A DNA stretch of 40,199 nt from a virus (taxonomy: Duplodnaviria; Caudoviricetes), in IMG/VR virus record IMGVR_UViG_3300032272_000036, positions 1 through 40,199 of that record, one strand, 5' to 3'. Under the pieces are notes generated by a model. That model was not told the origin of the DNA. It searched no databases and saw only the letters and a program-made list of their open reading frames with translations. Position 1 is the stretch's first letter. Each line of letters starts with the position of its first letter. This document shows, in pieces, positions 3,288 through 37,100 of the stretch. The position numbers were made by a program, and so were the translations under genes.

Positions 3288-3401
3288 AAAGAACAAGTTT
3301 TCAGGTAGGATGGCTGGTTGCAGCGAATTTTTATGTGAGGAAATTATTATGGCAAAAATAGAATGTGTTGCAAAAAATACGATGAAACGTGTTGTTAACT
3401 C
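3288..3401 (-). repeat. degenerate attC-like site (array 1, site 0)
   Basis: GTTAACTC(3394-3401) is the exact complement of GAGTTAAC(3597-3604) at the gene end; AAC at 3292; arms decayed. Confidence 0.45.
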
Positions 3402-3603
3402 AAGTAAAAAACAAATGACATTTCCGTGGGCTGTTTTTTTGGTTGTTGTTATGACAATAGCATACGCCTACCATTGCGAAACTGGCGACAAACTAAGCGG
3501 ATTTTTCATTTATTTCTGCGCAGTTGTTGGATGTCTTTGTGTGTGGTCGATAGACACAAAAAATTATTATTACGTTAAGTACTTAAAAAGTAAAGAGAGT
3601 TAA
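3349..3603 (+). CDS. small membrane protein, cassette cargo
   Basis: GAGG RBS at 3337; two hydrophobic segments; stop TAA overlaps the TAAC core. Confidence 0.65.
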   Translation: MAKIECVAKNTMKRVVNSSKKQMTFPWAVFLVVVMTIAYAYHCETGDKLSGFFIYFCAVVGCLCVWSIDTKNYYYVKYLKSKES

Positions 3604-3662
3604 CGCTGAGGCAACTGGTTGCGTGGCAGTTTCAGTAATCCATGTTTAGAGTTTTATTATAC
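3598..3662 (-). repeat. attC-like site (array 1, site 1)
   Basis: + strand AGTTAAC GCTGAG GCAACTGG...T CCATGTTTAGA GTTTT ATTATAC. Confidence 0.7.
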
Positions 3663-3681
3663 ATTTTTGGAGGTAAAAAAC

Positions 3682-3924
3682 GTGTGCGAATGCGAAGAAA
3701 AAGACTGTGAATACAAAGAAGGTAAATTATACTGGCACGAAGCTCTTGATAGAGCCCATGTTGCTTGTGACCACTTTTACGAGTATGTGCAACAGCATAT
3801 AGCGGTGCAGCATGACGAGGCACTTGAAGAAGCTGCAACGGCTGTCACTGATGCTATGCGGGATTTTTATCAACTTGTTGGCCGCAAATCATACGATTTT
3901 GACCAAAGGGACGGAGAAGTATAA
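3682..3924 (+). CDS. hypothetical protein, cassette cargo
   Basis: GGAGG RBS at 3669 and GTG start; HEALDR motif; stop lies in TAAC. Confidence 0.7.
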   Translation: MCECEEKDCEYKEGKLYWHEALDRAHVACDHFYEYVQQHIAVQHDEALEEAATAVTDAMRDFYQLVGRKSYDFDQRDGEV

Positions 3925-4117
3925 CGCTGAGCTCAATTGCCCCAAGTGGCTTAAGGAGAAGTACGATGGCAATATGTGAACACAAAAGCAAATGTGAAAA
4001 TTATACAAGCGAATGTAATAGGCTGGCCCACCCTTTTATGAACGCAAAGAAAGGGTGCTTGGAATTACCAAGCAAAAAACCGCTGACCTTGGGGTCGATT
4101 GAAGCGCATTGTTCTAT
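3919..4117 (-). repeat. long attC-like site (array 1, site 2, 199 bp)
   Basis: GTATAAC GCTGA GCTCAATTG CCCAAG...CTTGGG G T CGATTGAAGC GCATT GTTCTAT; loop contains the RBS and ATG of the next gene. Confidence 0.75.
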
Positions 4118-4280
4118 TGATTGGGCTCTTTTTACGGATAAGCGCCCAGAGATAGGAGAGTGGATATTAGCATACACTAAAGGCAGAACACCACAGACAT
4201 CTTTCCACACGATTAAATATTATAAAGGTGACGAAACTCAATATACCCACTGGGCTTCATTGGAAGCGCCAAATCAATAG
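3966..4280 (+). CDS. DUF551-like domain protein, cassette cargo
   Basis: C-terminal W...DKRPE.G.WIL...THWASLEAP pattern; AAGGAG RBS. Confidence 0.65.
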   Translation: MAICEHKSKCENYTSECNRLAHPFMNAKKGCLELPSKKPLTLGSIEAHCSIDWALFTDKRPEIGEWILAYTKGRTPQTSFHTIKYYKGDETQYTHWASLEAPNQ

Positions 4281-4331
4281 AACGCTTGGATAAATGGCGA
4301 GGAACGAGTCCAATTAATTATTTTGTTGGTT
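4277..4331 (-). repeat. attC-like site (array 1, site 3, 55 bp)
   Basis: ATAGAAC GCTTGG ATAAATGG CGAGGAACGAG T CCAATTAAT TATTTT GTTGGTT. Confidence 0.8.
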
Positions 4332-4350
4332 TACGACAAGGAGCGAGAAA

Positions 4351-4554
4351 ATGACTGATACAGAAAGAGTTAAGAAGGCAATAGACTTCGCAGTAGAATG
4401 GGGAGGGGTAGACGGGGAGCACCATAAGGATTGGTGTATTGACCAAATGGTAAGGATTTTAGCAGGCGATGAATATGACAATGTCGTGAAGGACGCGTGC
4501 GCAGGAGAAGACGGACCTGATACGTTTGGCTGGGATTGTGGAATAGCGCCATAG
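4351..4554 (+). CDS. hypothetical phage protein, cassette cargo
   Basis: AAGGAG RBS; GGVDGEHHKDWCIDQMVRIL...WDCGIAP resembles a common small phage family. Confidence 0.75.
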   Translation: MTDTERVKKAIDFAVEWGGVDGEHHKDWCIDQMVRILAGDEYDNVVKDACAGEDGPDTFGWDCGIAP

Positions 4555-4556
4555 TA

Positions 4557-4688
4557 AACCAACGGTTGAATTAACTGGTTTGCGGACTTAGCGCAACCAA
4601 GGAGAATATAGCAATGAGTTATGAAAACAGTAACCAAGTTCCAGGAACCGACGCTGCCCGCAAATCCACGTTGAATGATTTGTTATAT
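4557..4688 (-). repeat. attC-like site (array 1, site 4, 132 bp)
   Basis: AACCAAC GGTTGA ATTAACTGG TTTGCGG...CCGCAAA T CCACGTTGAAT GATTT GTTATAT; extrahelical T and G on the + strand. Confidence 0.85.
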
Positions 4689-5054
4689 GTTTATTCTGGG
4701 AGGTGTAGGCAGTGTGAGGTAGGGCTGCCAACTGGTTTAAAAGATGACGCTGGAAACAGATTAAGAACCGGCGATATTGTAATGAGCTATACCGTTGACT
4801 CTTTTGGGGTGGCGAATTTCGATGGGCTGACGGTCGTGATAGCTGACCAGTGGCAGACATATAGCGACGGGAGTCATGTGTTACAGGAAGATAAGGCCAC
4901 CCCTTTTGTGATGGGGATAAAAAATGTGGATTTAGAGCTAGAGACAGGGGTTTACCCCGATCACGTATGGCGGGTGCGAAGATTGAAGGCATACGAAGAC
5001 GTTGTTGATGGTGAACACTGGAAAGATTTTGGCTTCAGTTTCAAGTCCATATAA
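4614..5054 (+). CDS. hypothetical protein (YopX-like TGLKD..G..L..GDIV segment), cassette cargo
   Basis: AAGGAG RBS inside the attC loop; stop lies in TAAC. Confidence 0.7.
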   Translation: MSYENSNQVPGTDAARKSTLNDLLYVYSGRCRQCEVGLPTGLKDDAGNRLRTGDIVMSYTVDSFGVANFDGLTVVIADQWQTYSDGSHVLQEDKATPFVMGIKNVDLELETGVYPDHVWRVRRLKAYEDVVDGEHWKDFGFSFKSI

Positions 5055-5181
5055 CGTTTTAAATCACGGGATTTTTGCAATTAAATCACAAAACGAGGAA
5101 CGAAGAAATGACCGATGATAACACAATAGACGAAGAACGAAGCCAGGACTGCAAAAATTCCGGTGAATTGCCTTGTTATAC
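5049..5181 (-). repeat. attC-like site (array 1, site 5, 133 bp)
   Basis: ATATAAC GTTTTA AATCACGGGA TTTTTGCA...TGCAAAAA TTCCGGTGAATT GCCTT GTTATAC. Confidence 0.8.
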
Positions 5182-5455
5182 ACGATGCAAGGTAAAAGCG
5201 TTGAATGTTTCCAGTGATATGGTTCTCGTTGATTATTCTGTCAGCCACAACAATGGGACAACCACAGTTGAGCAGTCTATGAGATTGGTAAAAGAGCGCG
5301 GAAAGTGGAAAGCAGAAATTCAATTATTTGATTTTCCAGAACAGGATACACCAGATCGTGCGGCAACTAAACTTTCTGAATGGCTAGGTAGATTGAGCTT
5401 GGCGATAGCTGGTGGGGAGTGCTCCAATATCTACCTGGATGATCTTGGCGTATAA
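5108..5455 (+). CDS. hypothetical protein, cassette cargo
   Basis: GAGGA RBS and ATG inside the attC loop; stop lies in TAAC. Confidence 0.7.
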   Translation: MTDDNTIDEERSQDCKNSGELPCYTRCKVKALNVSSDMVLVDYSVSHNNGTTTVEQSMRLVKERGKWKAEIQLFDFPEQDTPDRAATKLSEWLGRLSLAIAGGECSNIYLDDLGV

Positions 5456-5472
5456 CAGTGTTAATAAGTGGA
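5452..5472 (-). repeat. array-terminal attI-like site, copy 1
   Basis: ATAACAGTGTTAATAAGTGGA; near-identical to 9170-9190 and 12417-12437. Confidence 0.65.
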
Positions 5473-5541
5473 CAACTTTTCCACGCTTAACTTGGTTTTT
5501 TAGTTGATAAGTGGAAAATACAAAATAACAAAGGGCATAAA

Positions 5542-6141
5542 ATGACTTTCCAGACGAAGATATTTGTAGATGGAGATGACGGAGAAAAGTTATCATGTGC
5601 TGAAGCTGCTGCAATTTTAAGTGGCGAAGGTAAAAAGACGACAGCAAAACAAATACGCAACCATATTGCAGGGAAAAATATTACGACGATCGACGGATTG
5701 CGTAATCATAGAGAAAAAGTTGAGAGAAAACTAAAGTCATTTAAGCCAAAGCCACCGATAAGGGGAGACGATGGAAAAGTTATCAGTAACGCTGATGTTG
5801 TTAACACCCTAAAAGTAGAGGGGTATACCGCGTATGAGCAAAAGGTGAGCTATTACCGTGATCGTCATGGCGCTAAATCGCTCAACGATCTGAGACGGTT
5901 ATTTGGCGAGAATGTAAGAGTTGATAGTCCTCGTGGGATATTGTCTGGAGAGTTTGTAAAAATTGAAGATAAGATTTACAAAGTTGCAGAGGTCTTTGCC
6001 AACGGAGCCGGCCGACCTGATTTAATGTGCAACCCGGTAATGACCAATGGACAAGTTTTGACACGTACAACGAGATATATTAGCGGCACTGAAAAATGGC
6101 GTAAACTGAAGTATGACCCAAAGGTTTTTATTAAAAAGTAA
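5542..6141 (+). CDS. hypothetical basic protein, possibly DNA-binding with an internal repeat
   Basis: 199-aa K/R-rich ORF; two GDDG-led segments. Confidence 0.65.
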   Translation: MTFQTKIFVDGDDGEKLSCAEAAAILSGEGKKTTAKQIRNHIAGKNITTIDGLRNHREKVERKLKSFKPKPPIRGDDGKVISNADVVNTLKVEGYTAYEQKVSYYRDRHGAKSLNDLRRLFGENVRVDSPRGILSGEFVKIEDKIYKVAEVFANGAGRPDLMCNPVMTNGQVLTRTTRYISGTEKWRKLKYDPKVFIKK

Positions 6142-6159
6142 AAAAATGTGTTTTTACTG

Positions 6160-6188
6160 TTGACTTATATGTCCAATGGGTATATATT
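6160..6188 (+). promoter_or_regulatory. sigma70 promoter with overlapping imperfect palindrome (operator candidate)
   Basis: TTGACT(6160-6165)-17 bp-TATATT(6183-6188); TATATGTCCA-A-TGGGTATATA spans the spacer. Confidence 0.65.
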
Positions 6189-6245
6189 GTAGGTAAAGGA
6201 TGAGGCAATAAAGCCTTAAGCGACAAAGACAACAGGGAGAACATT

Positions 6246-6464
6246 ATGAAAGCTACAATTAACCCAGGAGCAGAATTTGATTGGACTGGAAAAACATGGG
6301 AAGAATTAGCAGTTGCCTACGGGATGGACGAGAAATCAATGAGAGAAGAAGCTATTGAGTTCCAGAATTGCGAAGGGTTTGACGACGAAGGTAATGAATC
6401 AGATGATTTACACGAGTGGTTGACTAATGAAAATGCCGCATTTGTAGACAATACACCTTTTTAA
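6246..6464 (+). CDS. small acidic hypothetical protein
   Basis: GGGAG RBS; 72 aa, very D/E-rich. Confidence 0.7.
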   Translation: MKATINPGAEFDWTGKTWEELAVAYGMDEKSMREEAIEFQNCEGFDDEGNESDDLHEWLTNENAAFVDNTPF

Positions 6465-6512
6465 CATAACCAACGGGGCTTGGAAACAGGCCCCACAACA
6501 AGGAGAGAGACG

Positions 6513-6704
6513 ATGAAACTTTATATTTTTAACAGAGAAACAATGAAAGTTATTGCTACAGTCGAAGGAGACAGGAACATTGACTGTGAGAGAATAGCAG
6601 AGGAAAACGGATCTTGTCCGGACGAGACAGTAGGCTGGACATACTCTCCTGGGTTTGGGTTTGAAGGTGGACTTGAGGAAAATGACAAAGTCGTAGAGCT
6701 TTGA
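6513..6704 (+). CDS. small acidic hypothetical protein
   Basis: AGGAGAG RBS, ATG at 6513; preceded by hairpin GGGGC...GCCCC (6475-6494). Confidence 0.65.
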   Translation: MKLYIFNRETMKVIATVEGDRNIDCERIAEENGSCPDETVGWTYSPGFGFEGGLEENDKVVEL

Positions 6705-6705
6705 A

Positions 6706-6903
6706 ATGAAAAATTTAACGATTGCAGAATTAAGAGGCAAAACAGGACTCACTCAGAAGGAATTCGGGAAACTGCTAGGCATGACACAGCCAGCAGTTAA
6801 CCGGATCGAGTCCGGTAGGCGCACTGAGACTAAAGGGCACCTCGCAACCTTGGCTGCGCTTGATCTTATTATCGAGAAAGGGATGCTCGATTTGTTGTTG
6901 TAA
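6706..6903 (+). CDS. XRE/Cro-family HTH regulator
   Basis: LRGKTGLTQKEFGKLLGMTQPAVNRIESGRR. Confidence 0.9.
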   Translation: MKNLTIAELRGKTGLTQKEFGKLLGMTQPAVNRIESGRRTETKGHLATLAALDLIIEKGMLDLLL

Positions 6904-6942
6904 AAAAATATAACGCCGTTTTAATAACGAGGAAAGATTATT

Positions 6943-7104
6943 ATGAAAAAGTATGAGAGCGTAAGGATGGCCGTTTTAATCCAGTTGATGTCAGAAATCA
7001 CCGGAAGCCAAGAAGGTGTGATTCTGGAGGCATTACAAGGCCATTGTATTGACGAAGAAGACGCTGGTGCTATTAAGAGAGAACTTGACGAAATCCAAGA
7101 GTGA
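6943..7104 (+). CDS. hypothetical protein (53 aa, MKKYESVRMAVLIQLM...)
   Basis: GAGG RBS; below the ORF-track cutoff. Confidence 0.5.
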   Translation: MKKYESVRMAVLIQLMSEITGSQEGVILEALQGHCIDEEDAGAIKRELDEIQE

Positions 7105-7226
7105 TATCTGGCAACCAAACGGCAATCTCACCAGTGCCGCCACCGGATGAGTAAAAATAACGCCAGCGTTCCAATAATCCGGTGCAACGACTGATCAAAA
7201 CAGCAACCAAGGAGGAAATATACACC

Positions 7227-7321
7227 TTGCAAAAACATGAGCGATAGAGTATAAAGTAATAGTCGCTTCATCTCCCTCCTAAACCCCATTGCCACCTGTG
7301 ATTCTCGGCAATGGGGTTTTT
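7227..7321 (+). ncRNA. candidate small RNA (promoter, anti-SD-like segment, intrinsic terminator)
   Basis: TTGCAA(7227)-17 bp-TATAAA(7250); CTCCCTCCT; 13-bp perfect stem 7281-7293/7307-7319 plus Ts. Confidence 0.4.
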
Positions 7322-7407
7322 CTCGTTTTGACCAAAAAATACATAGAATGCCAATTATTTTGTCAATTACATTGTAAATCTAAATATAATGTGTTATTTT
7401 ATATATT

Positions 7408-7587
7408 ATGAAAGAAGAAATTAAGCCAAGTAAATATTGTAAGCAGCAAGGTTTCAAAACTCTAACTGAATGTTCTAGAGTAGTGGACGTTAAAGTCCCA
7501 ACGCTTAGGAATTGGAGCAAATACCACCCTGTTCGTTTTAGGGCTGTTGTGGCTGGTGGTGTGTTTATTAAAAATAATAACCAATAA
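7408..7587 (+). CDS. small HTH-like protein (59 aa)
   Basis: PSKYCKQQGFKTLTECSRVVDVKVPTLRNW pattern; below the ORF-track cutoff. Confidence 0.55.
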   Translation: MKEEIKPSKYCKQQGFKTLTECSRVVDVKVPTLRNWSKYHPVRFRAVVAGGVFIKNNNQ

Positions 7588-7788
7588 TCATGGACAAAAG
7601 AATGGAAAAGACAGATCTCCATATGTATTTTTTTTGCTTGCCTTGGGTTTAGTGTGGTGGGTTTACTTGTTCCTGTTTTTAGTGGCGAGCCGTTTTTAGC
7701 CGCGGCGTTTGTAATTGCTGCGCTAATAGACAATGAAAAATAATTAGGGTTTGTTTTCAGGGTGAAGGATCGTGGTGAGGAGGGTGTT

Positions 7789-8109
7789 ATGAAAAGAGAA
7801 GTGAGAATTATTGTTTTTGAAGATGATGATATTGAAGATGATATTCCGACTGCTCCTGCCGAATTTATGGCGTTTTGGCGAGAGAAGATAGACTTAATCC
7901 CCCAGGAATTTATGGACACGGCCAATATAGATCTTGTAGGTGATTCGCGATGGGAGAGCGGATACCTTGAGGCTAGAATCAGCTTTACCAGGCTGGAGAC
8001 TGACGAAGAAGAGGCGGCAAGGTTGAAAAAAGAAGAAGACCGCAGAAAATTTATAGAGAACCAAGAGCTTTGTCAACTTGAAAATCTCAAGGCTAAGTAT
8101 GGGGTCTAA
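7789..8109 (+). CDS. hypothetical protein
   Basis: GAGGAGG RBS; stop lies in the TAAC of a degenerate attC-like site. Confidence 0.7.
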   Translation: MKREVRIIVFEDDDIEDDIPTAPAEFMAFWREKIDLIPQEFMDTANIDLVGDSRWESGYLEARISFTRLETDEEEAARLKKEEDRRKFIENQELCQLENLKAKYGV

Positions 8110-8192
8110 CCCAATAATAATCCGTGGCCCTCAATGTATATTCCAGTAGGGTCATTGACGTTCTAGCCATCCAGGTAATTTTGTTGTTAGCT
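8104..8192 (-). repeat. degenerate attC-like site
   Basis: GTCTAAC CCAATA ATAATCCG TGGC...GCCA T CCAGGTAATT TTGTT GTTAGCT; same layout, weak L-box pairing. Confidence 0.4.
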
Positions 8193-8306
8193 GAATATAT
8201 AAACAATATTATGCTATTGGAAAAATGATTATGAAAAAAGAAGAAGTTTTAAAAACTTGTGCAAAAGTAGTTATTGCTGGTGTCACAACCGTAAGAAGGC
8301 ATAAAA

Positions 8307-8900
8307 ATGACAAAGGATAAGAAGAAGAAGCCTGATTGGGAAGCGATATGGTGTGATTATCGTGCTGGTGTTTTGTCAGTAAGGGAAGTAGCAAGAGTCC
8401 ACAGTGTAGACGCTTCGTATTTGTTGCGTAAAGCCAATAAGTTAGGTGTTAAAAGAGACCTTACTAAAAGGGTAAAAGAGGCGGTAAATACTAAATTAGT
8501 CCACGGATCAGTCCACACTCCAGGGACAAGCGACGATGATATTGTCGAAAAGGAGAGCTCTAGAGTTGTTGATGTTGTCATGTTGCATAGAAAGGATATT
8601 CAGGATACACGGGAAGCAGTCAGGATATTGAGGGATCAGCTTATTGAGTCCACGCTGAACATTACTGAGATTGAGGAGGAGATTGTTAAAGAGACTGAAG
8701 ATGATAGAGGGGCAAACCGCAGGAACCAGATGTTGAAGGCAGTCTCATTACTTTCAAGCTCTTCAATTATTGGAAATCTTACTAATGCCATATCAAAGCT
8801 GATTCCCCTTGAGCGTCAGGCACACAACCTGAACGACGAAGAGGATACAGAAAAGAAACGTATTTTTGTTTCTAGGGTGAAGGCTGGGAGTGATGGTTGA
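8307..8900 (+). CDS. terS: terminase small subunit
   Basis: PDWEAI..DYRAG.LSVRE.A HTH, ..RDL.., LIPLERQA; upstream of terL. Confidence 0.8.
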   Translation: MTKDKKKKPDWEAIWCDYRAGVLSVREVARVHSVDASYLLRKANKLGVKRDLTKRVKEAVNTKLVHGSVHTPGTSDDDIVEKESSRVVDVVMLHRKDIQDTREAVRILRDQLIESTLNITEIEEEIVKETEDDRGANRRNQMLKAVSLLSSSSIIGNLTNAISKLIPLERQAHNLNDEEDTEKKRIFVSRVKAGSDG

Positions 8901-8980
8901 CGCCGTTATAAGCTGCCAGCCGACAAACTGACAGCTAAACCCCTGACCTCATTCTGGTCAGCTTTATAAAATTGTTATCT
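8895..8980 (-). repeat. attC-like site (array 2, 86 bp)
   Basis: GGTTGAC GCCGTT ATAAGCTG CCAG...CTGG T CAGCTTTAT AAAATT GTTATCT. Confidence 0.8.
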
Positions 8981-8999
8981 TTAAAATCAAGAGGATATT

Positions 9000-9173
9000 A
9001 TGGAAAAGTTTACAGTTAAACACTACATAGACCATGCTCACCCATCCATAAAAGGTTTTGGTTTTGATGGTCTTGTTGTCGGGGAATACAGGGAAGAGGC
9101 CGAAGAGTTTATTGAATTTATTAATGACATTCTTGATAAGTGCGAAAAGGCAGGGGTTAGCATAGAAAGATAA
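9000..9173 (+). CDS. hypothetical protein (57 aa, MEKFTVKHYIDHAHPSIKGFGFDGL...), cassette cargo between terS and terL
   Basis: GAGG RBS; stop lies in TAAC; below the ORF-track cutoff. Confidence 0.7.
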   Translation: MEKFTVKHYIDHAHPSIKGFGFDGLVVGEYREEAEEFIEFINDILDKCEKAGVSIER

Positions 9174-9190
9174 CAGTGTCAATAAGTGGA
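9170..9190 (-). repeat. array-terminal attI-like site, copy 2
   Basis: ATAACAGTGTCAATAAGTGGA. Confidence 0.65.
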
Positions 9191-9203
9191 AAATAGTATT
9201 TAG

Positions 9204-10478
9204 ATGATGAACAAACCGCAACTGAAATACGACTACGAACTCAAAATATGTGAGGACATGTACAACCCTATCTACCTCCCGTATTTAGACCAGTCAAGGT
9301 CAACAGAGATTTTTTACGGTGGTTCGTCATCAGGAAAATCAAACTTCATTGCACAGCGAACGATTGAGAATATCATGGAAGGCGGTCACAATTACCTGTG
9401 CTGCCGGAAGATGGGGAACTCGATCACCAAATCAGTATTCAACGAACTAACTAAAGCGATTTCGAAACTGAATGTTGGCCATTTATTTAACGCCGTCCCA
9501 TCCCAGGGTCACATAACTTGCGTAAACGGGTATCAAATATTATTTAGCGGCCTTGACGATGTTGAAAAAGTTAAGTCGATCACGCCAAAACTTGGCGTAA
9601 TTACAGACGTTTGGTGTGAAGAAGTGACAGAAATGTCTTACGCGGATATCAAGCAGCTGCGGAAAAGGTTGAGGGGGGTGGCCGTTTATGATGATCGCAG
9701 AATCCAAAAGCGCATAGTTATGACATTTAACCCAATTTACAAGACTCACTGGATCTATAAAGAGTATTTTGTCCCAATTGCCTGGAAGGATAACCAGAAA
9801 GAACACATTGACGAACGTCTTAGTGTTCTCAAGACAACCCACCTCGACAATGAGTTTCTCGATGACGAAGATCACTTGTTACTTGAAGAGGAAGAGGATG
9901 AGTATTGGTATCAAGTTTACACACTTGGAAACTTTGGTATACTTGGTGACGCAATCTTTACCAACTGGCGTACTGCAGATCTTTCAAAAATAAGTAAATC
10001 ATTCGACAGGATCAGAAACGGCCTTGATTTTGGTTATAGCTCTGACCCTAACGCTTACGTGCGGATGCACTACGACAAGCCTCACAAGAGAATATATATC
10101 TTCAAAGCATGGATGGCTAAAAAACTCACAAACCCAATGATTGCCGAAAAGCTCAAGCCTATAATTGGCAAGGAGCCAATCTTTTGCGACTGTGCAGAAC
10201 CAAAATCAATAGCAGAATTGCAAGCCGAAGGAATCGACGCTAGGCCGGTAAAAAAGGGCAAAGATTCAATCATGCACGGGATCAAGTGGTTACAAAAACA
10301 CGAGATCGTAGTTGATGAAGAATTGCAGCCAGTAATTAACGAGCTCAACACGTATCAGTGGAAAAAAGATAAAGACGGGAACGCGCTTCCAATCCCAGTT
10401 GGGGATGATGATTTTATTGACGCGACTAGATACGGAACAGAGATAGAACACACCGGATTCTTTGAGGGACTGGTTTAG
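9204..10478 (+). CDS. terL: terminase large subunit, PBSX family
   Basis: FYGGSSSGKS Walker A, VWCEE Walker B, TFNP, GLDFG, DCAEP, DDFIDATRY. Confidence 0.95.
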   Translation: MMNKPQLKYDYELKICEDMYNPIYLPYLDQSRSTEIFYGGSSSGKSNFIAQRTIENIMEGGHNYLCCRKMGNSITKSVFNELTKAISKLNVGHLFNAVPSQGHITCVNGYQILFSGLDDVEKVKSITPKLGVITDVWCEEVTEMSYADIKQLRKRLRGVAVYDDRRIQKRIVMTFNPIYKTHWIYKEYFVPIAWKDNQKEHIDERLSVLKTTHLDNEFLDDEDHLLLEEEEDEYWYQVYTLGNFGILGDAIFTNWRTADLSKISKSFDRIRNGLDFGYSSDPNAYVRMHYDKPHKRIYIFKAWMAKKLTNPMIAEKLKPIIGKEPIFCDCAEPKSIAELQAEGIDARPVKKGKDSIMHGIKWLQKHEIVVDEELQPVINELNTYQWKKDKDGNALPIPVGDDDFIDATRYGTEIEHTGFFEGLV

Positions 10479-10656
10479 GCCAGTAATGTTTATGTTGTGA
10501 AAGCTAAAATAATAAAGTTTCCAAACAAGAGACAACGAGAGCTGTCACTACTAAAAAAGCAACGATTACTTGATCAACAGTTTGATCTGGTGAATAGGAA
10601 GATTAATATCTCCAGGATCAAACGACGACAATAACCACCTATAAGGAGGGTGAAGT

Positions 10657-10890
10657 ATGTGCCACGAAAGATGTAAAAAGTGTGAGAATGTTGAAAACTG
10701 CATAGTAAAAGATAAAATCAGAAACCCTGGAATGTGTAATTTTTTCCTTCCTGCAGACAGCGAGGATGAACAGGGAGCGAGGGAATTTCTGGTTGATGTA
10801 CTTGATTCTAAATTCAACAACCATATTCTGGTTAAGATGCCGGGTGGTTTGGCTTGTGAGCTTGCAGGTTTTATTCAGAAACTTCAATAA
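10657..10890 (+). CDS. small Cys-rich hypothetical protein
   Basis: AAGGAGG RBS; CxxC-rich N-terminus. Confidence 0.6.
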   Translation: MCHERCKKCENVENCIVKDKIRNPGMCNFFLPADSEDEQGAREFLVDVLDSKFNNHILVKMPGGLACELAGFIQKLQ

Positions 10891-10973
10891 GTAGCGATTG
10901 AATTAAGCGGATGGCTAGTGAAGCCAGCTAAAACAGCAAAGTTTATTCCAGTTCGATTGAATACTGGTTGTGT
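10889..10973 (-). repeat. degenerate attC-like site (array 3, site 1)
   Basis: AGC(for AAC) GATTGA ATTAAGCGG...T TCGATTGAAT ACTG GTTGTGT. Confidence 0.55.
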
Positions 10974-10983
10974 GAGGTTATTT

Positions 10984-11181
10984 ATGTATACGTTAATTTT
11001 ATTTTTTATTGTGTGGCTTGTTTGGTTTTCCGTTGGATGTGCTGTTTTATCCTTCATTGACGATGAAAATAGCAGTTTGTTTAAGTGGGCCTCATCTTGT
11101 CCAATTCCGATTATAGGGTATCCGATGGTTGTAACTATGTGGCCTTTGTTGGCTTGGGCGTGGCTTCATAGGGAAGTCTAA
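10984..11181 (+). CDS. small membrane protein, cassette cargo
   Basis: GAGG RBS; two hydrophobic segments; stop lies in TAAC. Confidence 0.65.
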   Translation: MYTLILFFIVWLVWFSVGCAVLSFIDDENSSLFKWASSCPIPIIGYPMVVTMWPLLAWAWLHREV

Positions 11182-11262
11182 CGATTTAATCAGTGGTCCG
11201 CCACTGACTTGCAGATTTAATAAACTGGGTCTCTTCGTCTCCACTGAATTAACTTGTTGTAA
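11176..11262 (-). repeat. attC-like site (array 3, site 2, 87 bp)
   Basis: GTCTAAC GATT TAATCAGTGG...T CCACTGAATTA ACTT GTTGTAA. Confidence 0.75.
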
Positions 11263-11326
11263 TGTATAAGGATATTATGATTATAGAAAAAAATAAAGAT
11301 CAATATGAAACCAATGAGGTAAAAAA

Positions 11327-11512
11327 ATGGGACATCCGGCGAATGACAAAGCAACTTTAGAAGCTATTTTTAAGGCATTTAACCACGCTAAAGATTCTGG
11401 AGAGGATACTGTAGTGCAGACATGCAAAGGAGATGTAAGATTCAAGCCCGGTTTGACTGGGGTTAAAGTGCAAATAGAAGGTGCCAAAACAGCTAGAAAC
11501 AATTCTAGATAA
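11327..11512 (+). CDS. hypothetical protein, cassette cargo
   Basis: GAGG RBS; stop lies in TAAC. Confidence 0.6.
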   Translation: MGHPANDKATLEAIFKAFNHAKDSGEDTVVQTCKGDVRFKPGLTGVKVQIEGAKTARNNSR

Positions 11513-11564
11513 CGCGCCAATAACTGTCGAGCTTGCGAGTCCATGTTAATTGGACTTATTGGGC
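11507..11564 (-). repeat. attC-like site (array 3, site 3, 58 bp)
   Basis: 37/38 identical to 11951-11988 (ATAACTGkCGAGCTTGCGAGTCCATGTTAATTGGACTT). Confidence 0.85.
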
Positions 11565-11599
11565 GATTTGCCCGGAACCTTAATTTGAAAGGAAATATT

Positions 11600-11902
11600 A
11601 TGAGTGAGAAAGAAATTGAACAAGAGATCCAGGACAAAGGGTTGAACGCTCCAAGACTCCGCCCGGCAGATATCGACACCGTGATCGTTGGTGAGACCTT
11701 CACCACATTACCAAGCGGGAAGGCCATGGTCTGTGAGTTAACCCTTGCCAGTGGTTTTACCGTGCGGGGTGAATCGGCCTGTGTCAGTAAGGCGAATTTT
11801 GATGAGGGCATCGGCCAGAAGATAAGCAGGGAGAACGCACGAAATAAGGTTTGGGAACTCGAAGGCTACCGGTTGCAATGTGATTTGGCCCGTGGAATCT
11901 AA
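11600..11902 (+). CDS. N4 Gp49 / Sf6 gp66 family protein, cassette cargo
   Basis: IEQEIQDKGLNAPRL...GFTVRGESACVS..NFDEGIG...KVWELEGY signature. Confidence 0.85.
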   Translation: MSEKEIEQEIQDKGLNAPRLRPADIDTVIVGETFTTLPSGKAMVCELTLASGFTVRGESACVSKANFDEGIGQKISRENARNKVWELEGYRLQCDLARGI

Positions 11903-11936
11903 TTTTATCGGGCGGCAAGGTTGCAGAACTTTGACC

Positions 11937-11995
11937 GCCCAACGTTTGAGATAACTGGCGAGCTTGCGAGTCCATGTTAATTGGACTTGTTATAT
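11937..11995 (-). repeat. attC-like site (array 3, site 4, 59 bp)
   Basis: - strand reads ATATAAC...GTTGGGC (perfect GTTRRRY). Confidence 0.85.
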
Positions 11996-12016
11996 GCGTT
12001 TTTTACGGAGAACATT

Positions 12017-12208
12017 ATGAAATGGTTAAATTTTATACCTCTTGTTTTGTGGGCAATTGGTTTTTTATGCGCCACGGAATGGTCATTGCATCTTAGGCAA
12101 ATTGACGGGAGGGTGAGTGACCTTAAAACACAATCTGAAGCAGGAGCTAAACTGTGGCTTTATGGTTCAATACTGTTTTTGATTATCGGAATTTTATTGT
12201 CAATATAA
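12017..12208 (+). CDS. small two-TM membrane protein, cassette cargo
   Basis: GGAG RBS; stop lies in TAAC. Confidence 0.7.
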   Translation: MKWLNFIPLVLWAIGFLCATEWSLHLRQIDGRVSDLKTQSEAGAKLWLYGSILFLIIGILLSI

Positions 12209-12260
12209 CGTAGGATGTTCAACGGCGAGCTTGCGAGTCCGCTGTAACTTTTTGTTATCA
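12203..12260 (-). repeat. attC-like site (array 3, site 5, 58 bp)
   Basis: ATATAAC GTAGGAT GTTCAACGG CGAGCTTGCGAG T CCGCTGTAAC TTTTT GTTATCA. Confidence 0.85.
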
Positions 12261-12276
12261 AGCATAGAGGAAGAAG

Positions 12277-12417
12277 ATGATTAAATACTTCAAAGAATTA
12301 TTGACAACGCTGGTTAAGATTGAAAAACATCTGGAAAAGATATCAAAATGTGTAGCTGAAAAACATCATGGTCACGGTGACAGATTTAGTATTTCCACGA
12401 AACATTGGAATGATTGA
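12277..12417 (+). CDS. hypothetical protein (46 aa, MIKYFKELL...), cassette cargo
   Basis: GAGG RBS; below the ORF-track cutoff; ends TGA-TAAC. Confidence 0.6.
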   Translation: MIKYFKELLTTLVKIEKHLEKISKCVAEKHHGHGDRFSISTKHWND

Positions 12418-12437
12418 TAACAGTATCAATAAGTTGA
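12417..12437 (-). repeat. array-terminal attI-like site, copy 3
   Basis: ATAACAGTATCAATAAGTTGA. Confidence 0.65.
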
Positions 12438-12459
12438 AAGTTAATCACGCAATAACACT

Positions 12460-13179
12460 ATGACCCAAAAAATAACAATAGAAAAGCCAGATCACATAGA
12501 AGGAACCGCCGGAGCAAGAAAAGACTGGGCAGTGATAACCGGAAAAGAACTCACACTGAAACCAGCAGTGTTTCTTCACTCAAAAACCGGTGAATATTAT
12601 TGTCACCTCGTGGGCGGCGTGGCATATCCTGTTGCAACTGGGCAAGAGGTAAAGCCTGGAATTTTATTAATAGTTGGCATACAGAACGAACCAACTGTAA
12701 AATTCACCGTTCTCGAATCATATGAGGACAACAATGTTTTTAACCTGATTGAAAGAATGGTAACGTTGCGAAGAGATTACCTTTTTGGAAAAGATTCTCG
12801 TATCCTTCCGAACTGGTACGGCGATCAAGAAAAATATCAGACATTAATACTTAAAGCGTCAGAATCGCTTGAGAAACATAAAGGTAGTGAAGCTGGCCTA
12901 TACATTAAAGACACAGTTGATAGGAGAGAAAAGCACTGTTTCCCTTTGTATGTGCGTCAAATATTTAACGCATTGGAGAAAAAACAATTAGATATTAACG
13001 GTGACCGAATAGTTACCGGAGCACTACAGTCATTTCAACGAGAAGATGCGGAAAAAGGGGCACTTGACAATTTTCCGCTTGTAGGTTTGCTAGGCGGTAT
13101 GGTACACTCATTGCAGGTTGAAAGGCCCTGGCTTGAGGATGCCGATGGTGAGGGTACGGTTTTCAACGTTGAATTTTAA
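12460..13179 (+). CDS. hypothetical protein, possible terminase-nuclease (RNase H)-like fold
   Basis: 239-aa ORF; pattern of three strands, helix, W.GD, terminal helix (inference). Confidence 0.6.
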   Translation: MTQKITIEKPDHIEGTAGARKDWAVITGKELTLKPAVFLHSKTGEYYCHLVGGVAYPVATGQEVKPGILLIVGIQNEPTVKFTVLESYEDNNVFNLIERMVTLRRDYLFGKDSRILPNWYGDQEKYQTLILKASESLEKHKGSEAGLYIKDTVDRREKHCFPLYVRQIFNALEKKQLDINGDRIVTGALQSFQREDAEKGALDNFPLVGLLGGMVHSLQVERPWLEDADGEGTVFNVEF

Positions 13180-31174: not shown

Positions 31175-34100
31175 ATGGCACTTCCACAAGGGTTCAGCGA
31201 AATCGGTTCACCTCCAGCAGAAGAGCAAAGCACAATAGAGCCACAAGGCTCTTCAGGGCTCCCCTCTGGCTTTACGGAGATAGGAGACGTTCAGGCTAAA
31301 GTTGAACCATTGCCTGAATTAGAAGCAAAAACAGGGACAACGGCTGGAGACTACGGAAGGTCGTTGGCTGTTGGACTAAACAGGTTTGGGCAGACAATTG
31401 GTCGTACTATTGATGTTGTTGGCAATATTGACCCCACAGGACTGTTAGACAAGGCAGGGCAGGGGATAGAATCATTTTATAAAGAAAAAGAAGCAGAAGA
31501 TCTGGCCGCAATGTCACCGGCAATGAAGGAAGCCCAGTCATTAAAGTATACCACAGACGTTAAAGAGTCATGGAGAGACGCGCCACTCAAGAACTTCAAG
31601 AGCATTTTTCAAGGCGAAGCATGGAAGAGCCCTACAAAGATAGTTAGCAGTTTGCTACAATCTGCACCAAGTACCGTTGTGGGTATGGGTACTGGAGTTG
31701 GTATAACCGGAAGTCTAATCAAGAAGGGTGTTTCATCTGGACTTGCTGGAGTAATTGGTGGGTTTGTGGGTGAGGGCGGAACCGCTGCGATTGAGTCTGG
31801 AAAAGATGTTTACGACTTGGTTATAAGCGCTCCTACTGACATAATTTCAAAAACTCCAGAGTTCCAGAAGGCCATGCAAGCACTTTCGTCTGAGCAATTA
31901 ACGGACGAGGAAAAAGAAAAGCAAGTAAGAGAACTTATAGCAGATCATGCGGCGATGAAATCTATGGCAAAAGTTTTCACAGCCACCGGATTACTTGGCA
32001 GCGTATCTGGCCACTACATGGGAAAACTGCTTGGCGGTGAAGCAACTGGTGGACTTTCCAGAAAAGCACTTACTGAGGGTAGTCTTGAGGCTTTACAGGA
32101 GACCCCGCAGAGTGGATATGAAGTACTCGAACAAAACTTCCAAAAGAAAAAGTTTGTAGATCCAAACCAAGATATATGGCAAGGCGTAAAGGAAGCCAGT
32201 GTTGAGGGAGGTGTGCAGGGGTTTGTGATGGGTACCGGTATGGGAGGTGGAGCTGCTGCCATGACTTCACCACGTGCCGTTGTAAGTCAAAAACAAGCCG
32301 ACACCGCAGCAACCACAAACATGAAAGTAAATGGGTTTGTTTCTTCTGACGATTCCGCAGCCGGTGTTGATATTGTGGGAGGGTTTGGTTTTGTCAACGA
32401 ACCTCTGGAAAAAGTAATAGATACCCTCACCAGCGCTCCCATGAACGTGCTTACCGATCAACTAACAGACGATGTACTTTCCTCAGAACATTTCCAGCGT
32501 ATTATCAGAGAGCTTTCCCAATCAGGAGTAGCACCAGAAGACATGAAGGCTGCAATCATTGAAAGAGTAGTACCAACAATGACTGCAAGTTTACAGCTCG
32601 GCATTGCGCTGAGAGAGACGACAACCGTACAGAGGAGACAATTACTCTCAGACCTAAATAACGTTCAAGATCCAAAGTCAAGAATCAAAGCCGTTGAACA
32701 GATAGAAAAGGGTATTTCAGATCAAAGACTTGCAAAGTCATGGGCTAACTCCGCAATTGATAGAATAAATGCAGGTTCCCAGATAAGCTACGACCAATCA
32801 TTAATTGACTTCGCCTCCCAAGATGAAGAGTCATTAAAAGCAATGCGTGAAGCAACAGTTGATACTGCAAATGCCAATTTCAAGGAAGACCTACGGCGAA
32901 AACTAGACAACCTGAAAAAACACAAAAAGCCTACTGACAGAGTAAAATCAAATATAATCACCATCGAGCACCAACTTGGGCAAATAGAACAGGAAGAGGC
33001 AAGCAGTGCTACGTCACAAGTTGAATCTCAGCCATCAACCCAGCAAGAGGAAAAAGAATCTCAGCCATCCTCAGAGCTCCAAAAGGCACAAGAGGGAAAC
33101 CAGAGAGGAGCTGAAGAAGAAATACTAAATTCTATGGCAGACACTCAACAGTCCATAAATGTCCAAGACGAAGTAAAAGGACGCCGCCAACGATTCAACA
33201 AGTTGCAAGATGACGCTCTGATGGATCAGTTTGTGGATGATGCTGAAGAAATAAAGAGACAGAACGACCCGGTGAAATTGGCACAGGAAAACGCAAATCT
33301 GCACAACAGCGTTATGAACAAGCTAAAGTCTGACCAGCCTTTAAGCGAAAAGGAAGAAGCGTACAAACAGGAATACCTTACAGCACAGCGTGAACAGAAG
33401 AATAAAACAGAGAAGTTGAAGAAAGAGCGGGAAGAGCTTCTTGCTTACGAAAACTCATACTCACCAATGCCAGGAGAACAAGCTGCAAGAGACAGAAATT
33501 TAGAGAACCAGTTCGTAGACGATGCCATCGACATTGAACAGCAGGACACCGACAAGACATTTCCCCGGGAAATAAAAGCCCACGAGCAGAATGTAAAGCA
33601 GCAACGCCAAGAGTTCATCGACAAGAATAAGAAAGCAAGAACCAAAAAGATCCACGACGAACTAAACAAGAAGTACAGCGACAAAGAATCTGCCGGCGTT
33701 ATTGCCATGGCCGACCCTGAGATGTTGAAACAGGCGAAGAAAGAAGCTGATACCATAGTTAGGTCAAATCCTGTTTACGAGCAAAAAGCAGCTATCAAGA
33801 AGAGTGGTGGGCTAAATCTCTCACAAGCCAAGGAACTTTACGGTGACAGCGTGACAGGTGCATACCCTGGCCTATTTTCCATGAAAGTTCCAGGCGGCCC
33901 CACCCCACTCGACATAGACACCACAGCAACCGAATACGGATACAAGAACGCAGATGAAATGTTCAAAGCGTTCGCACAGGCTCCTACAATAAAGAGTGAG
34001 ACAGCAAAGCTCGTGCAGCAATACGAGCAAGAGTGGTCAAGAGCCCAGGCTGACCAAGAAGCTGCTGGAGTAGTAACAGCCAAAGAAATACGAAAAGAGG

Positions 34101-37100
34101 CAGAAGCAGCAGGTGTTCAGACAAAGCAAAGTATAGCGCAAGAAGAGCTCCTACAGCCTACCGACAAGATAAGCGGAGAAAAAGGAATAACAGCAAACAA
34201 AGCTATTGAGATGTTTGCCGCAGGTGACTCTACTGTTATGGGTCACGTAGAGGAAGAAATAAAGCGGCATGGTGTCAAAGCTATGCAAGACGTATTGCTT
34301 AACAAACTAATGCTTAAAGTTGCACAAACTCCCAAAGGAGAAGCGCGTCAAAAAATACTTAAAAACATATCACCCTTGGAGGCTAAGGCTAAAGAATTAT
34401 TTTCTCTTGCAGAGGCAGCCGAGGAAGTAGAACCAACCACCAAGCGCCAACGCATAAAAGAGAAGTTGGCAGCAAAAACAACAGCCAAACCAACGGCTAA
34501 ACCAGAAAAAGTTGCCACCAGTTTATCTGATGAAAAAACGCCAACGATAGCAGAGGTTGACGCTGACATTAAGTTTTCAAAGTCAAGACCTGAATCCAAA
34601 GCCTCAAACCAATCCGACATAAGATCCGAGCTGTCCCAACCCGGCAACTTAGGCCGACTAGGAGTGCGTAACTTAGAAAGCAAGGGGCTGTTAGAAATAA
34701 TAAACCCAGAAAAAGCAAAAGAGATACTCGTTGCTACCGGAGAGTTTTCGGAGAGAGACGACGCGGTAATGCAAGGATTTACCATGCCAGTGAACGGTAA
34801 GCCAAAGACTTTCCTGATTCAAGGCAACATAAAGAACGGCAGGGCAATGTCCGTAATGTTACACGAATTATCTGAACACGTATTTGAACTTGGGTTTATC
34901 GACTCAACACAGTATGGAAAAGTTCTTTCTCAACTAAAAAGAAAATCTAAACTCAACAGTAAAGAAGGATCAGAGATAAGGGCGGCATACGATGCAGTGC
35001 CAAAAGAGACGGACCCTAATCATGTTGACCGTGAGGTCATGGCCTACCTTATCGAACAGGGCAAGACAAACTTATCCATAGTCCGCAGATTCATAGCCGA
35101 GATAAAGAAAATCCTAGTCGAGAAGATGGGTATTAGCCCTGTAATCCTGAAAAACATTGACCTCCAAGCATTGGCGTTGAACGTGGTTAAGCGGGAGGCG
35201 CGGGGAACTGTTGGGGAATCATTACAGAATGGGATAAATGAATTTGCTCAAAACACAAACTTAGCGTTCAGCGAAGCGAAGAAGGCCATAACCTACAATC
35301 CAGCGTTCAGAAAGTGGTTTGGTGACAGTAAAGTTGTGGATGATAATGGGGAACCTTTGGTTGTTTATCATGGGACTGGTGCTGAGATATCCATTGAAGA
35401 TGGTTTCATCTTTGATTATGACAAAATAGGTGAGCAAGGCAGGTCTGAAGGAGCAGGTTTCTATTTCACATCTAATCGTAGAGTCGCTGAAGGGTATGGC
35501 GCAGATGGAACTATTATTGAAGCATACATGAGTATTCAAAAACCACTTGCTTATGACTCGCCCCCCTTTGATATTGATACTGTAGAAAAAATTATTAGTC
35601 GTATAGCTGAGATTGAGGCCAAAGACTACGAGATTGATATCGAAGATGGATTTTTGTCGAACTATGGCGACACACGATATGACGGTCTTGAAAATGTGGT
35701 TGCCTCAGCTGCTGAGGCTATAGCCGATGAGGAAACTGCATTAGATCAGCTTGGTGGATTTATTGGGTCTGGTGTCGAAGCATCACATGTTAACCAGGCG
35801 GTGAGGGATATCACTGGATATGATGGTGTAATAACAGGTGGCTTCGGTGGCAAAGGAAGTGAGGTGCCGATCTATGTTGCATTTTTCCCTGAACAAATAA
35901 AATCAATCTACAACACTGGAACATTCGACGCGAACAACCCAGACATAAGATTTTCCAAGACCGGCGAAAAAGTAACCGACAAACTAAGACGCTGGTTCGG
36001 TGCGTCAAAACTAAAAGACAAGTCGGGCAACCCCATTGTAGCCTACCACGGCTCACCAGAAGAGTTTTACGAGTTCGGCAATACCAATAAGCGAGGAAAG
36101 ACCGGACACACCTCTTCGGGGCTTGGAGACTTCTTCTCGCTCAACAAAAAAACATCATCAAAATACGGGAACGTAAAACCATTCTTTCTGAAGATGGAAA
36201 ACCCCTACATGATGTCCCTCGAAGAAAGCCAAAGTTTTAATACCCTGGCCGACTCGGTAAAAAGGCGAGAAGAGTTGCAAGGGCAAGGATACGATTCAAT
36301 CCTTATCAAAGTACCAGGGCTGAAAGAAGGTTCAATGAATCCATACCTGATTACTTTTGAGGGTAACCAAGTAAAGAGCGCGGATAATAACACCGGAGAG
36401 TATAGTCTTACTGATAACGATGTGCGGTATTCTATCGCAAAACAAGATTCCCCAGCACCGCAAGAGTCGATAGAAAACATAATGTCAAAACTCCGCAGCA
36501 CATCCACCACCAAGGCCGATGCTGCTAAATACGGAACGGAAAAAGAGCAAAATATGGTTGCCGAGTATCGGAAGCTTGCCTCTTTGGCAAAGGATTCACA
36601 CTCTTCCATAGCAACCAAACAGAAGATGATAGCATCATTTTTGAAAGTTGTCCCACCAGAAGTACGCGCCAAAGTTATTGCACCGTTGACTTTTATCAGC
36701 CGCTTTATGCAAGTAGGTGCACACGAAAAAAGGCTTGCAGAAACCATTGCACGCGCAGAAAAAGAACTTACCACGTACCTTAGAAAAGGTTTAATCTCAG
36801 ATATTCAAAAAGGAGTTAAGCCGAGCAAGCTTGCTAAAAACAGAGTTAAAAAATCAACTCTTGGTTATGAGGCTTCACGGGATCTTGACTTTATCAGGGA
36901 GACCTTAAAAGAAAAAGATATTCCCGGGAAGATTGCGTATATTGATAACCAAATTGTAGAGAAAGAACTTGAGATTGAAGAAAACGGAACAAAAAAGGCA
37001 GAGGAAGAATTGGCAGACCTTGAATCTCACAGAAACATCCTTGAAACATTTGGTAACATCAAAGAACAGAACCTTGAGGACTTGATTTTTGCAAAAGAAG

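Follow-up and report, generated by a model that had tools for sequence, protein, structure and literature searches.

Shortened Desulfobacterota attI cores probably head cassette arrays in a phage contig without an integron integrase

Introduction

Integron integrases (IntI) are described as joining the folded bottom strand of a cassette attC site to a double-stranded attI site at the G|TT crossover (PMC9892861, PMC12901181, PMC2727003). Phages also harbor such recombination sites: Qi et al. 2023 (PMC9892861) reported groups of attC sites that have no integron integrase (CALINs), as well as integrons, in phages, and five of six phage attC sites recombined with attI1 through IntI1 in that study. 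Short attI pieces of 14–18 nt, usable by IntI1, have been described as delta-attI in class 1 and 2 integrons (PMC12901181), and IntI is reported to insert cassettes outside integrons as well, at secondary attG sites, in work that also treats single attC sites lacking an integrase (SALINs; bioRxiv 10.1101/2022.09.11.507474). Here we analyzed IMG/VR record IMGVR_UViG_3300032272_000036 (Duplodnaviria; Caudoviricetes), an entire linear phage contig of 40,199 bp with a completeness of 73%, hereafter the window. Small plus-strand open reading frames (ORFs) run in series at 3600–5455, 8900–9173 and 10650–12420, and an initial annotation had proposed that one 21-bp attI-like motif caps all three series. 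Sequence comparison leads us to conclude, with a probability of about 0.78, that the three motifs are shortened attI cores of Desulfobacterota heading attC arrays in an integrase-less contig, and that a host IntI likely inserts cassettes at their G|TT.

Results

The motif is that of a site linked to intI in bacterial genomes, its crossover lies at the same position, and attC sites of the host type lie on the same strand. The three 21-mers, at 5452, 9170 and 12417, agree at 18 of 21 positions (0/100 shuffles contained any match), and each precedes a larger gene: one at 5542 (199 aa), the terminase large subunit gene terL at 9204 and one at 12460 (239 aa). A 14-mer repeat is present at 5507–5520 and 9182–9195. 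The copies occur only at array ends, and with ≤3 mismatches allowed the window contains no fourth copy of the 17-nt site-side part. The suggested minus-strand reading holds: each copy stands at the head of its array and shows, like intI-linked host sites, an L box followed by a 5-nt spacer and G|TT; the letters following TT derive from the cassette and fit RRRY in part. According to PMC2727003, attI L boxes never match the R consensus, and the window sites behave alike. The motif is real, but its extent had been drawn too wide: the opening four letters, ATAA, differ among relatives and are part of the incoming cassette, and the site starts at the C of AA|C.

A motif scan of GTDB yielded 67 loci, which record titles assign to Desulfobacterota (46, including Desulfobulbaceae, Ca. 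Electrothrix, Desulfobacula and Desulfobacteraceae), unspecified Proteobacteria (6), Bacteroidota (3) and unrelated taxa (12); metagenomes contributed at least 122 further loci. Matches without an array or host tail were treated as chance (14/67 in GTDB, where ~17 are expected arithmetically from its size, 9/15 viral matches and 18/25 in a looser viral scan). A profile of the host tail recovered a full-length site in 46/67 GTDB loci and in 57/122 of the metagenome matches listed. Among the matches listed, 44 of 189 loci (20 of the GTDB and 24 of the metagenome full-length sites) carried a downstream intI on the same strand, starting at +157 to +161 in 30/44; this count is not deduplicated, and 36 of the 89 distinct full-length sites among the matches listed were intI-linked. 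All six host proteins tested passed TIGR02249 (413–435 bits, cut-off 265). Information across the same 89 sites was 0.16 bits left of the junction versus 0.96 bits to its right beyond the search pattern, i.e. conservation starts at AA|C, with a constant integrase side and a variable cassette side. In variants that read ATC instead of AAC the remainder of the site is retained, and 4/7 of those fetched have a complete or partial intI in its normal position, so only the C of AAC belongs to the site. The proposal that the motif is an attI-like primary site thus gained support in the databases, since host genomes show the core at a constant spacing from genuine intI genes, and units in relatives join at AA|C. 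The window sites themselves adjoin no intI, whereas the homologous host sites do. Hosts also carry attI alone: among 46 full genome sites, 25 lack an intI within reach, G008 has two motif matches with a full intI elsewhere in the genome, and internal deletions resembling the shortened forms occur in host-type loci such as L190 and L195.

Several further features of the host sites deserve mention. Host genomes (G596, G576, G619 and G008; loci L056–L122) can carry many attI-core copies, with up to 9 matches and often no adjoining intI, and the solo copies retain 60–220 bp of the site. In the ATC variants (L266–L271), 6/7 fetched loci have, immediately next to the attI crossover, a palindromic, gene-free unit whose ends read GAT...ATC; the unit is identical at three places in G619. 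The host attI contains several inverted copies of the L-box flank and could fold into a hairpin without extrahelical bases. The first cassette (360 bp) of the intI-linked host integron in L073 and L207 has a reversed 105-aa ORF ending at the crossover, as in phage cassettes, and in L137, L160, L184 and L188 the attI core is cut after ~40 bp by an AAC-led, attC-arm-like sequence, possibly a cassette-borne attI.

The arrays were delimited with 11 attC-like sites curated by hand and a covariance model built exclusively from 25 bacterial (host) attC, whose stem covaries; structure-only attC scanners were dropped as too noisy or too rigid. The model found seven curated sites at E<0.001 and two weakly, all nine on the minus strand and the seven inside arrays, and missed the 191-bp a2 (too long) and the degenerate a1. 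Its two other rows in the window are one weak palindrome at 269–296. The seven sites show the R''-L''-L'-R' order with strand-setting extrahelical bases. Because the canonical top strand of these attC is the minus strand, the start of each array is its right end, where the motif lies. None of the three motifs folds as an attC from its AAC (z −0.17, +1.24 and −0.29 for sites 1, 2 and 3) or is matched by the host-trained model. Best partner-arm scores within ~300 nt were 6.1, 1.9 and 4.9, compared with 8.3–15.3 for the six best attC. The statement that the motif has no proper partner arm needs one correction: site 1 has a weak partial inverted arm, which corresponds to an inverted repeat of the host attI.

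Cassette ends were compared with the junctions that follow them. Nine of the 11 attC ends complement the next junction by 4–9 nt beyond the core, against 0–3 nt for their own left flank, a result reached in 0/100,000 permutations. The lead cassettes complement all three motifs (4, 6 and 5 nt), so that at 3/3 sites the first cassette is joined at the crossover with its R'' complementary to the junction. One of the failures, b1 to b2, spans the terminase small subunit gene terS. The cassette genes are reversed relative to those of hosts: all ten units carry a plus-strand ORF running towards attI (a1 via a non-ATG start), and in six of them the stop codon ends at the crossover. A cassette promoter (Pc) reading from attI into sense genes, as in a complete integron, was not found, with no sigma-70 match at the three sites. 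Arrays 1 and 3 qualify as CALINs and are capped by the motif as annotated, but "array 2" consists of one intact cassette (8901–9173) with its attC and a degenerate attC upstream of terS.

Array 1 (3604–5455) comprises five cassettes, at 3604–3924, 3925–4282, 4283–4562, 4563–5054 and 5055–5455, each with a small plus-strand ORF reversed relative to its attC. Its attC sites, all on the minus strand, are a1 at the tail (3602–3658; R'' altered, curated by eye, without a model match), a2 (3923–4113; arm score 15.3–15.8), a3 (4281–4327; E 4e-5), a4 (4561–4684; E 4e-4) and a5, of the lead cassette (5053–5177; E 1e-7). For the protein encoded at 5111–5455 no relatives were found; that at 4614–5054 has three at 44–50%, none with the motif. 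A different hairpin type follows the homologue of the latter gene in a phage without the motif (L258:4390–4480). Upstream of terS lies the degenerate minus-strand b1 (8108–8188; E 0.1), unpaired with any cassette end. The single plus-strand cassette of array 2, between terS and terL, encodes a 57-aa ORF (9000–9173) and is bounded by b2 (8899–8976, minus strand; E 9e-6), whose R' reads G|TC rather than G|TT. Array 3 (11182–12420) holds four cassettes with plus-strand ORFs, at 11182–11512, 11513–11942, 11943–12208 and 12209–12420, and the minus-strand attC sites c1 at the tail (11180–11258; E 2e-5), c2, a degenerate near-copy of c3 (11511–11560; E 4.8), c3 (11941–11991; E 5e-6) and c4, of the lead cassette (12207–12256; E 4e-4). 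The ORF at 11543–11902 is a PF13876 Phage_gp49_66 protein. The ORF left of each trailing attC (3310–3603, 7762–8109 and 10918–11181) likewise stops at the crossover, and such ORFs may represent older cassettes whose attC has been lost.

The three sites, here termed mini-attI, represent two degrees of shortening, all on the minus strand. Mini-attI 1 (5450–5518) has a ~65-bp form with an R box at 5450–5456, the crossover at 5455/5456, a spacer at 5457–5461, an L box at 5462–5468 and a second repeat at 5507–5518. This layout is common to phage loci L011 and L174, which likewise keep the second repeat 43–45 nt from the first; its tail resembles host attI tails (0/60 shuffles as good), and the site aligns to host site L214 with one internal gap. 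Mini-attI 2 (9168–9195; crossover 9173/9174), directly before terL, and mini-attI 3 (12415–12440; crossover 12420/12421) consist of the core only (~20 bp) and have no second repeat. Accessory direct-repeat binding sites occur in attI1 and vary among other attI; the second repeat of site 1, L011 and L174 could be of that kind. Mini-attI 2 looks like a ~65-bp form collapsed between its two repeats. Mini-attI 3 has one change just outside the L box and shares its lead cassette with phage locus L001. A delta-attI-type cassette was considered at each place and rejected: to the right of site 1, a search for a matching cassette start found none, and backbone genes follow sites 2 and 3 within 11–23 nt.

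A short site with a complementary lead cassette was detected at 10 distinct other phage-type loci, namely 6/15 viral matches, metagenome locus L174 and three new loci from the looser viral scan (25 matches); the lead-cassette test fired at 0/204 random AAC positions. Loci L140 and L180 are the window itself and were left out of the lead-cassette, orientation and backbone-relative counts, remaining among the 122 metagenome loci as rows without intI. The lead ORF was reversed in 6/7 short-site loci versus 3/40 host-type loci (Fisher p = 5e-5) and in the three new loci (9/10 in total). Across the ten loci plus L144 and L185, 30 of 31 model hits were on the array strand and cassette side, the other being a weak other-strand shadow. 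Genes beside the phage sites encode TerL, SSB, endolysin, head morphogenesis and endonuclease proteins, and the cargo of related arrays includes DNA methyltransferases, radical SAM proteins and a dCMP deaminase. Two phage records have a second weak motif match, which in L001 is an attC arm. In L185 (776–800), the short motif lies between a small gene and terL, after terS, as an empty or eroded landing site might.

One cassette has passed between two phages, bounded at both ends by AA|C: cassette 12209–12420 recurs in L001 with 2 mismatches in 212 nt, both flanks change at AA|C, and the L001 copy sits second, behind another lead cassette. Loci L006 and L213 are alike at 41/45 nt downstream of the motif and share nothing upstream of AAC. 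The attC-family pattern scan returned six loci: L001, L127 (two attC, no motif in reach) and four without arrays. In L001, the L'-R' arm of one attC (1743–1796) is nearly the attI core, possibly an attI/attC hybrid.

The phage backbone indicates where the arrays entered. PHROGs names in the window comprise a replication initiator, a DnaB-like helicase, terS (8307–8900, plus strand), terL (9204–10478, plus strand), a portal and a major head protein; the terS stop codon ends exactly at the crossover of b2. In 7/7 backbone relatives terS and terL abut or overlap, and a homologue of the plus-strand 239-aa gene (12460–13179) follows terL within 0–6 bp in 9/10 relatives. As these genes are near-contiguous in relatives and the motif is absent from the seven scanned, the packaging operon has been interrupted by insertion of arrays 2 and 3. 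One relative, L017, has an attC-like match (E 0.002), away from terminase junctions. The homologue search for the 199-aa protein next to site 1 (5542–6141) matched itself alone. No tyrosine recombinase, and hence no intI in cis, was found in the contig (73% complete), which is why we class the motif as a host-derived attI core without intI rather than as the attI of a complete integron. Elsewhere in the window, four 11-nt repeats inside the replication initiator gene (1658–1718) are likely iterons of the origin, the region between arrays 1 and 2 (6160–6903) has a sigma-70-like match at 6160–6188 and a small HTH_3 gene at 6706–6903, and a 2791-aa protein is encoded at 31175–39550, for which all PHROG matches are of unknown function.

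Discussion

The motif copies, in shortened form, the attI beside intI of sulfate-reducing and cable bacteria, and the phage would likely borrow the host integrase to acquire and swap accessory genes. IntI would be supplied in trans by the host during infection or lysogeny. The bottom strand of attC is the plus strand in the window, and the folded plus strand of a circular cassette could recombine with a double-stranded mini-attI, so that each array would gain new genes at its downstream end. Should the fork move rightwards, the plus strand would be the lagging-strand template, a position described as favoring attC folding (PMC5371416); GC skew is positive across the arrays. Being reversed, the cassette genes would depend for expression on rightward transcription by the phage itself and not on an integron Pc.

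Other explanations were weighed against the same evidence. The sites could be genuine attI remnants that came with captured array pieces and are no longer used, the arrays now changing by attC × attC or homologous exchange between phages. The loss of the host tail from sites 2 and 3, the degenerate attC (a1, b1, c2) and the weakness of truncated attI1 as a substrate in one published assay (PMC12901181) would suit such a history, which we nevertheless consider unlikely: every one of the three sites retains an intact L box and spacer, the lead cassettes are all of the reversed type that is rare in hosts (3/40) and therefore probably joined in a phage, the lead cassette of site 3 is only 2/212 nt from an L001 copy that sits behind a newer lead cassette, and L006 and L213 differ exactly at the junction. 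It is less probable still that the sites are active but served by the phage's own integron integrase, or another tyrosine recombinase, encoded in the unassembled part of the genome. None of nine motif-bearing phage records searched (7–82% complete) contained an IntI over the cut-off, and other genes occupy the place ~158 bp from the site where host intI starts at all three window sites, even though the contig is ~73% complete and phage G647 encodes a tyrosine recombinase of 384 aa that is weakly similar to TIGR02249.

Two readings dispense with attI altogether. That the motif is one attC arm whose partner was lost might be suggested by its resemblance to the L'-R' half of local attC, by the nearly identical arm in L001 and by the weak inverted arm of site 1. 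This reading is already largely refuted by intI linkage and seems very improbable: the core adjoins intI in 44 loci among the matches listed, outside the core, site 1, L012 and L174 (0/60 shuffles each) and L011 (1/60) match the tails of host attI, and the attC model does not match the sites. We give even less credence to an operator or promoter box for terL and the two other downstream genes. Each copy does lie shortly ahead of a larger gene, and the motif of L014 and L185 also immediately precedes terL, but the downstream genes are unrelated in other phages (endonuclease, SSB, endolysin, head morphogenesis), the sites have no sigma-70 match, and cassette-end complementarity would be left unexplained. 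The initial annotation had named the occurrence of the motif away from arrays, as a regulatory box, and the failure of units in relatives to insert at AA|C as findings that would count against an attI; no motif away from arrays was seen in the window, the motif is absent from 7/7 backbone relatives scanned as well as from relative G650 (95% complete), and joining at AA|C is what units in relatives do show.

Several observations weigh against host-served mini-attI sites as the preferred explanation. An 11-nt truncated attI1 is reported to give no significant excision over the no-integrase control (PMC12901181), and the short sites may therefore be weak. The tails of sites 2 and 3 are unlike host tails (17/60 and 49/60 shuffles scored as well), the c1 to c2 junction inside array 3 shows no complementarity, and L144 and L185 are short-site phage-type loci in which the model finds no attC. 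Three copies per record are so far peculiar to the window, other phage records having one motif each. The window (73%) and the other phage records (7–82%) are incomplete and could thus still include a phage-borne intI. No terL relative at E≤1e-60 was found in 401 genomes of the host phylum, nor any prophage link to a host. One public sequencing run, X1, contains the contigs of both L001 and the window, with loose ends at the two junctions and no variant joints; it may be the source of the window and is therefore not independent. In this run no contig bridges the shared cassette, and its flanks pair by depth alone (12.6/14.8 versus 8.7/8.5).

How mini-attI came to lie at three gene junctions is the weakest step of the argument. 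The likeliest course is that recombination carried short modules of site plus cassette, which were trimmed between repeats of the host site. Cutting of such modules by IntI at a G|TT inside the host site was considered but found no support over baseline (AAC after the repeat in 30/84 and 18/42 host sites and ~half of phage forms). More speculatively, and in our estimate rather doubtful, attI itself may be portable: IntI would release a circle of attI core plus cassette and insert it at secondary sites on gene junctions, seeding landing pads in essential operons, and phages would run a multi-site, integrase-free integron with their own pool of reversed genes on the host enzyme. A single case, module 8901–9211, would be consistent with insertion of a circle of site plus cassette into the terS/terL overlap: it occupies the position at which the two genes overlap in relatives, and both of its flanking (G/A)A|C junctions follow an ATG of the terL frame by 8 nt.

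Host-served mini-attI sites would provide a concrete site-specific route to phage mosaicism, in which small accessory genes enter at defined points via a host integrase and not through random recombination. A cassette pool adapted to phage transcription is suggested by the reversed genes, a point relevant to where integron cassettes are made, and the site names a likely host group for an uncultured phage. The loci also define a natural attI deletion series of about 140, 65 and 20 bp, with cognate integrases identified.

Compared with described systems, the window resembles the phages of PMC9892861 in its attC clusters without intI. Among the phages as that paper presents them we found no stand-alone shortened attI in an integrase-less phage, no three sites between core genes and no systematic gene reversal, unlike the window, and its phage M16-3 carries its own intI, which the window contig does not. 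With chromosomal-integron attI, as represented by the model attI1 (PMC12901181) and environmental attI (PMC3146285), the window sites share the L box, 5-nt spacer and G|TT. With Desulfobacterota attI they share the core sequence, with attC of the same type and polarity, but they are cut to ~20 or ~65 bp, have no intI and no Pc that we could find, and are followed by cassette genes on the opposite strand. A delta-attI, as described in PMC12901181, replaces the attC at a cassette end inside an array, whereas the short site in the window heads the array and is flanked by phage backbone. The attG sites reported in bioRxiv 10.1101/2022.09.11.507474 are unlike attI, whereas the window sites are sequence copies of host attI; by analogy, the G|TC junction at the terS stop may be an attG-like secondary insertion event. 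Our search of the open literature, with subscription journals mostly outside it, found no integrase-less phage that combines a shortened host attI with reversed cassettes. Each element, CALINs in phages and truncated attI, is already in print; it is their combination that the search did not turn up.

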